The notes beneath the pieces were generated by a model. The model did no database searches. It was given only the letters and a program-made list of their open reading frames with translations, and was not told the DNA's origin. A stretch of 64,000 nt of DNA from a virus, in the UHGV virus genome UHGV-0351052; one strand, written 5' to 3'. The position numbers were made by a program, and so were the translations under genes. Of the stretch, positions 2,344 to 34,807 are shown piece by piece. The stretch's first letter is position 1. Every line of letters starts with the position of its first letter.

Positions 2344-2756
2344 TATTTTCCAGCCTCAAATGCTCGCATGTCTTGAATATGCTTAATGGCAAATCCACGT
2401 GATTTAATAGCATCAAGAGCTCCGCTACAGAAATCCAATAAAATCCCCCAATACTGTAACGAGGTATCAACCTTTAAAACATCCTTATCAGCTGATAGAA
2501 CTGTCTTCATTTCTGATTTCTCGTAACGATCCATACTAAATTCATCACCATCTCCTCGTCCCGAGTAGTAGTCTAATCTAGCTTTAAGAGCAACTTTTTT
2601 CTGTGCGTCAATTCTAAGCATTTCCTTTTTAATACTTGAATGCTTATTAAGCCATTTACTATATAACATCACATTATTAGCTGCTTCATACTGTAATTTA
2701 GTCGAATCTATAAACACATCTTTCTTCAATTCTTCTTGAAGATCTTCTAATCTCAT
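2343..2756 (-). CDS. uvsY: UvsY recombination mediator protein
   Basis: 137 aa; matches T4 UvsY as recalled. Confidence 0.95.
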   Translation of the reverse strand: MRLEDLQEELKKDVFIDSTKLQYEAANNVMLYSKWLNKHSSIKKEMLRIDAQKKVALKARLDYYSGRGDGDEFSMDRYEKSEMKTVLSADKDVLKVDTSLQYWGILLDFCSGALDAIKSRGFAIKHIQDMRAFEAGK

Positions 2757-2822
2757 ATTGTTCTCTATTCAATTGTTATTGGATGGACTTAGATTCATTA
2801 TACCACGTTTTAACGTGAAGCA

Positions 2823-3221
2823 TTATACCCTATTACTCGAAGCCAGTTGCAGTTTTATCTGCTCAATATCATCAGGGTTATCGATGACCGAAAAGCGTAT
2901 TTCTACTATCAGAGTATAATCATCATAAACTGGTATCACATTAACTGATAATTTATCAATACGTGGCTCATAGTTTCTTACTGCGCTTTCAATATTGCGC
3001 TCAACTGTGTCAGCAGTAAGAGGAGTCATATTTTCAAAAAGCTGGTCTGATAAATCACATCCAAATTCAGGGTCAAACGGTCTTGAACCTTTTCTTGTTG
3101 TAATAATTCCCAAAAGACTGTTTTTAATTGACCTTAATCCAAGTGATCTGGAAACATCTTTGTTCCAATCCATTTTCATTTCCGGGTCAATATCAGAATA
3201 AAGCTTATTAATATTTGCCAT
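2823..3221 (-). CDS. 25: baseplate wedge protein gp25
   Basis: 132 aa; T4 gp25 length and sequence. Confidence 0.95.
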   Translation of the reverse strand: MANINKLYSDIDPEMKMDWNKDVSRSLGLRSIKNSLLGIITTRKGSRPFDPEFGCDLSDQLFENMTPLTADTVERNIESAVRNYEPRIDKLSVNVIPVYDDYTLIVEIRFSVIDNPDDIEQIKLQLASSNRV

Positions 3222-3847
3222 TATAGTAACTCAAAGAACTCTTTGAGGCCTCTTATTACATGAGCATGGGTTTTTCCACACTCTGGACATTTAATTGGAA
3301 CAGCCAAATAAACGGTAGGTTTTAAAAGCATATCTTTTATAGCTACAATATCTGACTCTGTGATGATAGAATATAAATCTTCTAGTTCCTTTTCATTTAA
3401 GTCTTCAACTGGAATGCTTTCCCCGTTAGCATGAATCGTTTCTATGCATGATACTATCATGTGGGCTATATTTTTATCATCAAAAATTTTAGGGTATCGG
3501 AATTTAATTTTAATGTCACCCAGTGTATACCAGAGGTCTTCTGGTGCATCTATTTGTGTATGTAATAGATTTATATGGGTTGGTATTTCAGTTCCACAGG
3601 TGCACTTCCAGGAGTTTTCGTGATTAACTTCGCCGAGAGAATGTGCCCATAAATGAATCAGCAGTAGTTCTGATTCTTGGCGGTTTAAATCTTTTGCATT
3701 TGTGCAGTCTTTGATTAGCTTTTTAACAATTACTTCTACAGAACCATTATTTTTGGCAGTAATAAGTTCTAGATATTCTTTAAGCGTGAATGCGCGACAA
3801 TTGATTATTTTAGAACCAACTCTCACATCAAATTTGTATTCATACAT
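3221..3847 (-). CDS. 26: baseplate hub protein gp26
   Basis: 208 aa; synteny 25-26-51-27. Confidence 0.9.
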
Positions 3848-29395: not shown

Positions 29396-31660
29396 TCATA
29401 ATTTACAGGATGAACAGTCTTCAGCTTTTGGAGTTTCTATTTCATAATCATCAGTACCAGAACCATCACGGGTATTATGATAATAGAAATTTTTAATGCC
29501 ATAATACCATCCGTATAGCATGTCATCAATCATTATTGACATTGGAACCTTTCCTTTTGGAAAAATCTGCGGGTCATAATATGTATTCGCTGAAGCCGAT
29601 TGACATATCCATTTCAGCATAATAGCTACCTGCGTAAGATAAGGTTTATTACCTTTCTTAGCTAATTTCCATGTATAATCATAGAGGTCTATGTTATGCT
29701 CAATATTGGGCACGACTTGATTAAAGGAGCCCTCTTTTGATTCTTTAACAGAGACTGGTCCACGTGGAGGCTCGATACCGTTTGTACTGTTAGAAACTTG
29801 GGAAGATGACTCACACGGCATAAGTGCTGATAATGTGCTATTACGGATGCCAAAGAGCTTAAGGTCTTCCCGCAGCGACGACCAGTCACAAACGTATTTT
29901 GGAGCTGCGATTTGGTCAATCTTTTTATTGTACCAGTCGATAGGTAATTCGCCTCGAGACCAACGAGTGTCTGAATAATATTCGCAAGGTCCTTTTTCTT
30001 TGGCGAGCTTAATGGATGCTTTAATGAGTCCATACTGTAATCTCTCAAATAGTTCATGTGTTAAATCGTTAGCATCTTCATAAGAAGCAAAGTTACTTGC
30101 CAGCCAAGCTGCATAGTTAGTAACACCTACACCAAGGTTACGACGCTTTTTAGCTTTTTCTGCTTCAGGAACTGGATATCCTTGGTAATCCAAAAGATTA
30201 TCAAGAGCACGAACCTGGACTTCTGCCAATTCATTAATTTTATCTTGGTCTTGCCAGTCAAAATTATCCAGTACGAAGGCAGAGAGAGTACAGAGCCCAA
30301 TTTCAGCATCAGGACTATTCACATCATTTGTTGGAATAGCAATTTCACAGCACAAGTTACTCTGACGAATAGGTGCCTTTTCACGAATAAACGGAGTATA
30401 GTTATTCGTATTATCAATGAACTGCACATAAATCCTTGCTGTTCCTGAACGTTCAGTCATGAGCAATTCAAATAGTTCACGGGCTTTAATACGCTTTTTA
30501 CGAATATTAGGGTCTTTTTCTGCTGCTTCGTATAATTCACGGAAACGGTCTTGGTCTTTAAAATAAGAATAATAAAGCTCTCCGCCCATTTCATGGGGAC
30601 TGAACAAAGTAATGTAATCGTTCTTTCCAAAACGTTCCATCATCAAATCATTCAGTTGAACACCATAATCCATATGACGAATGCGGTTTTCTTCTACGCC
30701 TTTGTTATTTTTCAAAACAAGAAGATTTTCAACTTCCAAATGCCAAATAGGATAATAAGCAGTAGCAGCGCCGCCACGAATTCCACCCTGTGAGCATGAT
30801 TTAACAGCAGTCTGAAAATGTTTCCAAAAAGGAATAACACCAGTATGGCGTACTTCACCCATGCCAATCTTAGAACCTTCGGCACGAATCATACCAACGT
30901 TAATACCGATTCCAGCTCGTTTGGAAATATATTCAACAATTGAAGCAGAAGCCTTATTGATAGACTTCAGTGAATCGCCTGCCTCAATAACAACGCATGA
31001 ACTAAACTGCCGAGTTGGAGTACGGCAACCAGCCATAATAGGAGTTGGTAATGAAATCTGTCGAGTAGATACTGCTTCATAAAAACGGATAACATGTTTT
31101 AATCTATCAACAGGTTCATCTTGATGCAGTGCCATTCCAATAGCCATAAATGCAAACTGTGGAGTTTCATAAATTTGACCAGTGGTTTTATCTTTAACTA
31201 AATATTTTTCTTTTAATTGCATCGCCCCGGAATAAGTAAATTCCATATCCCGTTCGTGCTTAATTTTTGATTCTAAAAATGTAATTTCTTCTGCTGAATA
31301 TTTTGACAATAATTCAGGGTCATATTTACCTTCATTTACACAGTAAGAAATATGGTCAATAAATGAACGTGGTTCATACTGCCCATAAACATGCTTACGA
31401 AGAGCGAACATTAAACAGCGTGCAGCTACATATTGATAATCAGGTTCTTCAACCGAAATAGAATTCGCAGCGGCCTTAATGACAATAGTCTGAATATCAT
31501 CAGTTGTCATTCCATCACGGAGATAAGATTTAATATTTTCATATAATTCATAAGGATCTACTGATGTTCCTTCAGCTGCCCAAGATAAAACTTTAATAAT
31601 TTTTTGTGGGTCAAAGCTCTGAGAAACACCACTACTTTTGATAACATTAATTAATTGCAT
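29396..31660 (-). CDS. nrdA: ribonucleotide reductase large subunit NrdA
   Basis: 754 aa from MQLINVIKSSG (ATG 31660 with GAGGA SD); track ORF extends 32 codons upstream. Confidence 0.95.
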   Translation of the reverse strand: MQLINVIKSSGVSQSFDPQKIIKVLSWAAEGTSVDPYELYENIKSYLRDGMTTDDIQTIVIKAAANSISVEEPDYQYVAARCLMFALRKHVYGQYEPRSFIDHISYCVNEGKYDPELLSKYSAEEITFLESKIKHERDMEFTYSGAMQLKEKYLVKDKTTGQIYETPQFAFMAIGMALHQDEPVDRLKHVIRFYEAVSTRQISLPTPIMAGCRTPTRQFSSCVVIEAGDSLKSINKASASIVEYISKRAGIGINVGMIRAEGSKIGMGEVRHTGVIPFWKHFQTAVKSCSQGGIRGGAATAYYPIWHLEVENLLVLKNNKGVEENRIRHMDYGVQLNDLMMERFGKNDYITLFSPHEMGGELYYSYFKDQDRFRELYEAAEKDPNIRKKRIKARELFELLMTERSGTARIYVQFIDNTNNYTPFIREKAPIRQSNLCCEIAIPTNDVNSPDAEIGLCTLSAFVLDNFDWQDQDKINELAEVQVRALDNLLDYQGYPVPEAEKAKKRRNLGVGVTNYAAWLASNFASYEDANDLTHELFERLQYGLIKASIKLAKEKGPCEYYSDTRWSRGELPIDWYNKKIDQIAAPKYVCDWSSLREDLKLFGIRNSTLSALMPCESSSQVSNSTNGIEPPRGPVSVKESKEGSFNQVVPNIEHNIDLYDYTWKLAKKGNKPYLTQVAIMLKWICQSASANTYYDPQIFPKGKVPMSIMIDDMLYGWYYGIKNFYYHNTRDGSGTDDYEIETPKAEDCSSCKL

Positions 31661-31715: not shown

Positions 31716-32447
31716 ATGAAATCTGGAATATATGCTATTATAAACACTAAAACCAATAAGCACTATATAGGAAGTGCAATTAATTTTGAAGAACGATGGA
31801 AACGACACTTTAAAGATTTAGATAATGGAAATCATCATTCAATAAAGCTGCAGCGTTCTTATAATAAGCATGGGAAAGATGCTTTCGTATGTAAAATCAT
31901 AGAAGAACTTCCATACGAAAAATCTATCATTATTGAACGTGAAAATTATTGGATACATGAATATGACTCAAAGGAAAATGGGTATAATATAGCAGACGCA
32001 TCGTTTGGGGATACCTTATCTCATCACCCAAGAAAGCAAGAAATCCTTAATAAAATTTCAAATGCAATTAAAAATAATAATTCAAAATTATCACCAGAAG
32101 AACTTAAGCAAAAACATGGTAGACCTAAAGATATCAAAGGTAAAACTATAGAAGAACACTATGGGTTAGATCGTGCTATAGAACTAAGCAAAAAGTTCCA
32201 AGAAAGAAACGCTGCGCTTAATATGAAAGGCATCAATAATCCATATTATGGACAGACACATACCAATGAAGTTAGAAAACGAATTTCTGACTCACAAAGA
32301 GGTAAAAAGAAACCCCATCTAAGAGTAAGTATAGATGGGGTAGAATATCCAACAATAGCAGAAGCTGTGCGTCAAACCGGAATAAGCAGAAAACTTATAT
32401 CTAAAAGATGTGCTCTAGATTGTTGGGAATCATATTTATACTGCTAA
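31716..32447 (+). CDS. free-standing GIY-YIG homing endonuclease, I-TevI paralog (243 aa)
   Basis: N-terminal ~100 aa about 70% identical to I-TevI catalytic domain (GIY...YIG, RWKRHFK, NGYNIAD); divergent C-terminal domain; opposite strand to flanking nrdA and td. Confidence 0.85.
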
Positions 32448-32681
32448 AGTTCTACATTCTTCATATTGTTTTTCCGTTAAAACAGTAATATCATAATAAC
32501 AGTCAGAAGAAGTTTTAACTGTAGAAATTTTATTATCAAAATACTCACGAGTCATTTTATGAGTATAATATTTTTTGCCATAAATGATAATAGGCTGATT
32601 TGGTCCTGGAACTTCTAACTCGCTTGGGTTAGGAAGTGTAAAAAGAACTACACCAGAAGTATCTTTAAATCGTAAAATCAT
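32436..32681 (-). CDS. hypothetical protein (81 aa) downstream of td
   Basis: ORF; 3' end overlaps convergent endonuclease gene by 12 nt. Confidence 0.5.
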
Positions 32682-32989
32682 ATTGCCATTTTCCCTTTAA
32701 TTGCTGGATGCGATTCATAATTTTCAAGGATAAAATCTTTCGGTTTCATGTATTCAGTTAACCAGTAAAGCTGTGTTTCGGTGTCACAATTTCCAAACTC
32801 TATAGGCCAATCAATTTTAAGTTCACACAGTTCTTTAGGCTCACGACGTAAAATTTCTTTACATTGCTCAGTATGATTCATATAGATGTGAGTATTACCG
32901 CCAGAAAATATCAAATCTCCTGGGATAAGATTACACATCTTAGCTACAATATGAACTAACGCAGCGTATGATGCAATATTAAATGGTAG
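32678..32989 (-). CDS. td: thymidylate synthase, exon 2
   Basis: starts LPFNIASY directly after intron-terminal ATG; exon 1 + exon 2 = 286 aa. Confidence 0.9.
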
Positions 32990-33435
32990 CATTATGTTCA
33001 GATAAGGTCGTTAATCTTACCCCGGAATTATATCCAGCTGCATGTCACCATGCAGATCAGACTATATCTCCAACTTGTTAAAGCAAGTTGTCTATCGTTT
33101 CGAGTCACTTGACCCTACTCCCCAAAGGGATAGTCGTTAGGCATTTATGTAGAACCAATTCCATTTATCAGATTTTACACGATAAGTAACTAATCCAGAC
33201 GAAATTTTAAAATGCCTCTTCCATCTCTTTTCAAAATCTTTAGCACTTCCTACATATACTTTATTGTTTAAAGTATTTTTAATCTGATAAATTCCGCTTT
33301 TCATAAATACCTCTTTAAATATAGAAGTATTTATGAAAGGGCAGTCCTACAATTTAGCACGGGATTGTCTACTAGAGAGGTTCCCCGTTTAGATAGATTA
33401 CAAGTATAAGTCACCTTATACTCAGGCCTCAATTA
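32990..33435 (-). mobile_element. group I self-splicing intron in td (446 nt) with deleted endonuclease ORF
   Basis: exon 1 ends ...VDVFLG before in-frame TAA; intron 5' TAATTGAGGCCTGAGTATAAGGTG and 3' ...ATG match T4 td intron as recalled; 446 = 1016 - 570. Confidence 0.85.
33137..33304 (-). pseudogene. I-TevI remnant (55 codons; in-frame internal deletion)
   Basis: hand translation MKSGIYQIKNTLNNKVYVGSAKDFEKRWKRHFK|ISSGLVTYRVKSDKWNWFYINA: I-TevI N-terminal 33 aa fused to C-terminal 22 aa at an RHFK repeat. Confidence 0.75.

Positions 33436-34807
<1,372 letters not shown>

Follow-up and report, generated by a model that had tools for sequence, protein, structure and literature searches.

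A T4-type td group I intron whose I-TevI reading frame is reduced to a 55-codon in-frame remnant

The thymidylate synthase gene (td) of the viral genome UHGV-0351052 is interrupted by a T4-type group I intron that has very probably reached the decay stage of the homing-endonuclease life cycle through a deletion between direct repeats and that, defunct as it is, appears to be spreading still. The gene lies in a window of 64,000 nt, the whole stretch of DNA analysed here. Both the minus-strand sequence and the list of open reading frames (ORFs) agree with the initial annotation that a 446-nt intron splits td after VDVFLG and before LPFNIASY (Table 1). Once joined, the two exons encode 286 amino acids in an uninterrupted frame. 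The intron starts at position 33435 with TAATTGAGGCC (in a longer read, TAATTGAGGCCTGAG...), which is the canonical start of the T4 td intron, and terminates at position 32990 with ...AACATAATG (also read as ...CTGAACATAATG). It occupies the canonical td insertion site, after ...TTCTTGGGT and before CTACC..., with U as the last base of exon 1 and G as the last base of the intron; the upstream border reads GTTTTCTTGGGT followed by TAATTGAGG, the downstream border AACATAATG followed by CTACCATTTAAT. The terminal U of exon 1 pairs in P1, and the first codon of the intron is UAA. Alignment with the td region of T4T (HM137666, locus L002), our T4 reference, confirmed that the intron ends are those of the T4 td intron, as had been noted from the sequence; the exons of the window share only about 72–86% identity with T4.

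Table 1 Positions of td, its intron and associated elements in the window
Feature	Position	Strand	Description
td (thymidylate synthase) exon 1	33436..33984	-	183 codons, C-terminal ...VDVFLG
td group I intron	32990..33435	-	446 nt; T4 td intron positions 1–230 and 801–1016
td exon 2	32678..32989	-	103 codons and stop, N-terminal LPFNIASY
I-TevI remnant	33137..33304	-	55 codons and stop; I-TevI residues 1–33 fused to 224–245
Deletion junction	33206..33214	-	sole surviving copy of the 9-nt direct repeat CATTTTAAA; T4 intron positions 222–230 and 792–800
Rfam Intron_gpI (RF00028)	33038..33445	-	full-length alignment, P1 to P9; profile search, E-value mode
Last 20 nt of the ORF (P6a/P6/P7 in T4)	33137..33156	-	identical to T4
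I-TevI regulatory region	33302..33335	-	late-promoter-like CATAAATA (AATAAATA in T4), operator overlap, hairpin over GAGG ribosome-binding site and AUG
Free-standing GIY-YIG homing endonuclease	31716..32447	+	243 aa, intact; I-TevI paralogue, outside the intron

Relative to the 1016-nt T4 td intron, the intron of the window contains a single gap of 570 nt and is otherwise identical at 444 of 446 positions. The alignment bears out that the loss equals exactly 190 codons (1016 − 446) and reveals the remnant ORF to be exactly collinear with I-TevI. Breakpoints were placed by aligning the two intron arms separately, as a global MAFFT alignment against full-length introns misplaced the gap. The two substitutions are A101C (T4 intron numbering; window position 33335) and C949A (window position 33057). 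Position 949 is C in T4 and TuIa, and A in U5, RPN226, one IMG/VR contig and most deleted copies; A949 is the common allele, with T4 and TuIa being the exceptions. [quoted passage not shown]

At the junction, one copy of the direct repeat CATTTTAAA survives where the T4 intron has two (5′ copy in its context, AAGAGGCATTTTAAAGATT; 3′ copy, GCTAGACATTTTAAAATTT; window junction, AAGAGGCATTTTAAAATTT). The repeat is perfect over 9 nt and extends to a match of 11 out of 12 when the preceding AGR (AGG/AGA) is counted, and the crossover point falls within it (window 33214..33206). It specifies the HFK codons of the RHFK motif, which, as had been pointed out, occurs at two places in intact I-TevI (residues 30–33 and 220–223, by our own count on the I-TevI sequence). 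That the endpoints lie within a perfect 9-nt repeat supports the earlier proposal of a deletion between short direct repeats, and the 570-bp segment with I-TevI codons 34–223 was likely removed by replication slippage or short-homology recombination.

The presence of a 9-nt repeat is itself not beyond chance, the T4 intron comprising seven repeated 9-mers vs. 5.3 expected in shuffles. Direct-repeat pairs of at least 9 nt number four in the T4 intron: a 12-nt pair would delete the ribozyme core, two others would remove just 33 or 135 nt, and CATTTTAAA is the only one able to eliminate most of the ORF yet remain in the dispensable P6 loop. HFK is read in one and the same frame from either repeat copy, so the fusion is automatically in frame and requires no selection. 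An assembly artefact could be ruled out, since several laboratories obtained the identical junction in independent assemblies.

The remaining ORF reads MKSGIYQIKNTLNNKVYVGSAKDFEKRWKRHFK followed by ISSGLVTYRVKSDKWNWFYINA (full translation, MKSGIYQIKNTLNNKVYVGSAKDFEKRWKRHFKISSGLVTYRVKSDKWNWFYINA) and consists, as initially described, of the first 33 and the last 22 residues of I-TevI (1–33 and 224–245), with the 190 codons 34–223 absent. GIY, YVG and R27 are retained; E75, N90, the linker, the zinc finger, the minor-groove helix and most of the helix-turn-helix are missing. In line with this, the Pfam GIY-YIG profile was matched in the remnant only over positions 2–51 of 78, leaving the catalytic domain incomplete, and of the 51 positions of I-TevI_DNA-bd (PF20987) just the last 23 (29–51) are kept. 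The zinc-finger linker PF22635, found by Pfam at residues 149–179 of T4 I-TevI, was not found in the remnant. With the catalytic residues E75 and N90 and the zinc-finger linker gone, and almost none of the DNA-binding domain left, we infer that the product can neither cut nor bind DNA. From these features, we conclude that endonuclease and autorepressor functions are most probably gone, with the ribozyme apparently intact; self-homing would have ended, and so would autorepression by I-TevI of its own late promoter.

A profile search aligned the intron end to end with the Rfam group I model (RF00028, model positions 1–253), with 40.5 bits (below the gathering score of 50) and an E-value of 6.8e-9. 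P1, P2, P3, P4–P6, P7, P8 and P9 were all found, the ORF remnant forming a 197-nt insertion in P6. At the gathering threshold, Rfam returned no intron match, either for the region alone or for the whole window. Together with the agreement at 444 of 446 positions with the T4 intron, which has been characterised experimentally, the end-to-end alignment supports the intact-looking RNA core noted in the initial annotation. [quoted passage not shown] As the deletion is confined to the dispensable P6 loop and the 3′-terminal ORF bases needed for P6a, P6 and P7 are retained, the deleted intron should still self-splice and td should still be expressed. The ribozyme would have been spared by virtue of the deletion lying wholly in the P6 loop.

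This expectation of splicing draws on the open 286-aa td frame, on td exons that are intact on both sides of the remnant at 10 of the 10 public loci listed, and on natural td introns of 254–320 nt that contain no ORF whatsoever. Most of the P6-loop ORF has also been removed from the td intron in laboratory ORF-deletion constructs that kept self-splicing; those constructs are engineered and have other endpoints, unlike the natural and apparently repeat-mediated deletion of the window. At the IMG/VR locus L008 (IMGVR_UViG_3300030021_000013, 2352..3513), exon 1 and ~150 nt of the intron are followed by DUF5496 and nrdA, with no exon 2, and Pseudomonas phage PsgM02F (L016, 1201..1780) possesses a truncated td with just intron positions 749–1016 and exon 2. 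Hence, td seems to be dispensable in some relatives, and an open td frame says less about function than the open frame of an essential gene would.

The initial annotation had proposed a search for the same junction in other T-even genomes, and this search was successful, with five GenBank phages and at least 23 public contigs recovered. A 111-nt query spanning the junction gave one uninterrupted match of 99–100% identity in vB_EcoM_F1, vB_EcoM_FN, e11/2 (vB_EcoM_112), vB_EcoM-G28 and FL18, and matched ~220 other GenBank records as two pieces 570 nt apart. The GenBank record of FL18 (L012, PP400780) assigns this phage to the genus Mosigvirus and the other carriers belong to Tequatrovirus, suggesting either a cross-genus transfer or a label to be checked. 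The exact 55-aa sequence was present in 31 blocks of a public collection, of which 23 contigs were read, including assemblies from sewage metagenomes and from SRA, and single-residue variants of the remnant occurred in dozens more contigs. The exact junction pattern was not found in IMG/VR, JGI metagenomes or GTDB genomes; for IMG/VR, this absence says little, as just two contigs with a td intron of any kind exist there.

More generally, the full T4 intron as a query matched 260 records, with coverage of 80% or more in 197, and ORF-less td introns are common. Those of 320 nt (PYps55T (L013), HP3, ESh30 and 235Ecol030PP) go back to an independent deletion of 696 nt, whose 3′ breakpoint lies within ~4 nt of that of the 570-nt deletion. 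Others measure 263 nt (BYEP01 (L014)) or 254 nt (HMD-9 (L015), N2 (L018) and CJY920 (L019)). The existence of these three natural forms implies that the ORF region is dispensable in nature. They share with the window the insertion site, the ribozyme core and the loss of I-TevI, but, unlike the 446-nt form, have lost the promoter, the hairpin and the start codon too. Only in the 446-nt form does an in-frame ORF persist together with its expression signals; consequently, this form looks like an earlier stage of decay. In the 263-nt class and some 254-nt copies (HMD-9, N2), paired changes in P8 (AACTTG...CAAGTT to ATCTTG...CAAGAT) preserve the helix.

The td records of T6, RB3 and U5 deposited with a 2004 survey of T-even introns (Sandegren and Sjoberg, JBC) are 1877 nt long and contain the full 1016-nt intron; the TuIa record of the same survey is a partial cds whose annotated exons likewise leave a full 1016-nt intron. 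A literature search, in which that survey was judged by its td records only, retrieved no paper on a natural I-TevI deletion or on this allele. The deleted allele is already present, uncommented, in public genomes, and degeneration of an intron endonuclease is a known kind of event.

The 14 deleted introns that we aligned have nearly identical arms. They differ by few nucleotides, the bulk of the differences being clustered in a single recombinant copy, that of e11/2, which has a six-site U5-like block in its 3′ arm. All 14, however, carry a private change in the segment that reads AATAAATA in T4, and none has the wild-type sequence there. This 13-nt segment is the late promoter of I-TevI, overlapped by the I-TevI operator, and also provides the 5′ strand of a hairpin by which early and middle transcripts keep their ribosome-binding site inaccessible (PMC2988022, a review of T4 mobile DNA). 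Two variants were observed. A101C, an A-to-C change at promoter position 1, is carried by the window, F1, FN and two metagenome contigs, and a 1-nt deletion at approximately position 104 by e11/2, G28, FL18 and seven other contigs. Among 232 GenBank records covering the segment, full-length 100% matches to either variant were restricted to deleted introns, four records of partial coverage falling outside this check; no intact intron with A101C or the 1-nt deletion was thus encountered as a full-length exact match. In folding predictions, A101C creates one more C-G pair, which involves the G of the AUG, and lowers the hairpin energy both locally (−11.6 to −13.2 kcal/mol) and in a 62-nt context (−16.6 to −22.3 kcal/mol). 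With the 1-nt deletion, the hairpin is less stable (−7.7 kcal/mol) and the promoter match is disrupted.

The two variants define two sub-lineages of deleted introns, and it is possible, if doubtful, that each goes back to a deletion event of its own, the 570 nt having been lost on two or more occasions at the CATTTTAAA pair. Such a repeated origin would account for the different private mutations of the sub-lineages and the lack of an unmutated deleted ancestor among the samples, and would fit with CATTTTAAA being the sole repeat pair of its length to remove most of the ORF without damage to the core, as well as with the nearby 3′ breakpoint of the 320-nt class. However, the lineages are nearly identical outside positions 101 and 104, no intact intron matched either promoter variant exactly over the full segment in the GenBank records covered, and a single origin followed by two mutations is equally parsimonious. 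According to the favoured reading of decay by repeat-mediated deletion, the deleted allele is old enough to have entered circulation; it occurs, as two sub-lineages, in many T4-like phages and on very different exon backgrounds.

The regularity of the promoter changes might also reflect compensatory silencing, an idea that we put forward tentatively and regard as rather improbable. Once the I-TevI autorepressor is missing, an unrepressed internal promoter, or ribosomes that reach the ribozyme core after only 55 codons, could be harmful, and deleted introns would survive just with a second mutation in the promoter, operator or hairpin. Consistent with this, the segment is mutated in every deleted intron aligned, exact matches to the variants are confined to deleted introns in the GenBank records covered, the 320-, 263- and 254-nt classes have dispensed with the segment altogether, and the variants either tighten the hairpin over the AUG (A101C) or corrupt the promoter (1-nt deletion). 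Moreover, the overlap of operator and late promoter is published, and T4 mutants of the ribosome-binding-site hairpin are impaired in td splicing through ribosome occupancy of the core (PMC2988022, PMC3073962). Yet, the pattern comprises two independent events only and was tested post hoc, and the two mutations shift hairpin stability in opposite directions. In addition, a dead ORF frees the segment of constraint, meaning that changes there are equally predicted by neutral decay of a sequence without a job, which is one reading of the data. Should compensatory silencing hold true, loss of the endonuclease would not be a free step, and the regulatory elements of homing endonucleases would be dismantled in a set order.

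Despite their near-identity, the deleted introns reside in divergent td genes. Comparing the window (32678..33984) with loci L001, L002, L004, L005, L010–L012 and L020–L029, we found the flanking exons of near-identical deleted introns to be up to 49 of 300 nt apart in exon 1 (16%) and up to 102 of 300 nt apart in exon 2 (34%), and differences this large occur even inside one sub-lineage. The td gene of the window is itself mosaic: overall it belongs to the U5/Ozark type, but T4-type sequence borders the intron, extending roughly 60–110 nt upstream and, in shorter and mosaic form, roughly 30–60 nt downstream. This patch looks like a co-conversion tract, and the U5-like 3′ arm of the e11/2 intron indicates recombination inside the intron. 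The claim that mobility was lost with I-TevI therefore stands in part. Self-driven homing must be lost, in view of the missing E75, N90, zinc finger and almost entire DNA-binding domain, but the intron still changes its background: near-identical introns in divergent exons imply that the defunct intron moved among td alleles, or that the alleles recombined around it. Judging by the sequences, the simplest and most likely route is homologous recombination during co-infection, which could proceed via the intron arms of ~230 and 216 nt that the deleted form shares with the widespread intact intron, or via the flanking exons.

Homing endonucleases pass through a life cycle of invasion, fixation, degeneration and loss (PMC2988022), and the intron of the window fits the degeneration stage. 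In contrast to simple in-place decay, this degenerate td intron appears to keep switching its exon background by frequent recombination. The nearest parallel is the T4 nrdB intron with its defunct I-TevIII, where, as in the window, an internal deletion killed the endonuclease and the intron persists (PMC2988022), spreading with outside help (PMC2790892). That case involves another gene, another intron and another endonuclease family (HNH vs. GIY-YIG), and trans-mobilisation, demonstrated for nrdB, is conjectural here. The td intron provides a natural snapshot of the best-studied mobile group I intron losing its endonuclease, from in-frame deletion through spread to shrinkage into the 320- and 254-nt forms, and its natural forms make up a series in which the coupling between endonuclease regulation and ribozyme folding could be tested. 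It reveals no new kind of element or mechanism; the regularity in the promoter/hairpin segment is the only part that may be worth experiments.

The window encodes a potential helper in trans. Located between nrdA and the DUF5496 gene, in reverse orientation to these neighbours and 543 bp from the 3′ end of the intron, the free-standing endonuclease is 46% identical to I-TevI overall, mostly in the N-terminal catalytic domain; it lacks the zinc finger and contains equivalents of GIY, YIG, R27, E75 and N90. The same gene (88–99.6% identity) adjoins td in Escherichia Tequatrovirus and Klebsiella Jiaodavirus-type phages. In T4, MobE mobilises the defunct I-TevIII intron in trans, with a co-conversion limit of roughly 2 kb (PMC2790892). 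By analogy, the neighbouring endonuclease might cleave endonuclease-less phages near td/nrdA, and repair would then carry the intron across by co-conversion, a scenario that we consider unlikely. Its intact ORF and catalytic equivalents, a distance well inside the published range and its constant position beside td in Escherichia and Klebsiella T4-like phages are compatible with such a role, as is its pairing with a deleted intron of the other subtype in an SRA contig (L025), in addition to the window, and with the 254-nt ORF-less intron in N2 and CJY920. Conversely, the gene is absent at nine of the ten listed remnant loci, as well as from F1, e11/2, G28 and FL18, and it also sits beside intronless td genes (Ozark, ECO07P5, KP179) and intact introns (RPN226 (L006), sutha). 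Being absent at most deleted-intron loci and present with every td state, the endonuclease shows no consistent association with the deleted intron, and collaborative homing was rejected as the main explanation. As regards the adjacent gene, an inserted HNH or MobE-like endonuclease divides nrdA in RPN226, e11/2 (L010) and L025, leaving an N-terminal part of 477 aa; the nrdA of the window (about 29396..31660, minus strand) is uninterrupted.

That the 55-residue product is a selected, functional small protein, e.g. a regulator or an inhibitor of the I-TevI of co-infecting phages, is very improbable: the ORF is open in all copies, with its start codon, ribosome-binding site and promoter-like sequence kept and both end fragments recognised by Pfam, but the repeat alone yields the in-frame fusion, the fragment is devoid of catalytic and DNA-binding determinants, single-sequence AlphaFold modelling yielded low confidence (pLDDT 68.6, pTM 0.42), the copies are too alike for a test of selection, with non-synonymous variants including S20N, T11I, K33T, V43I and K47N, and the more decayed intron classes have lost the ORF entirely. 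Decay by repeat-mediated deletion, the reading we prefer, is of practical use for annotation, as the 55-aa stub is labelled 'homing endonuclease' in databases; across the carrier genomes, it is variously annotated as 'homing endonuclease', 'endonuclease I-TevI' or 'hypothetical protein'.
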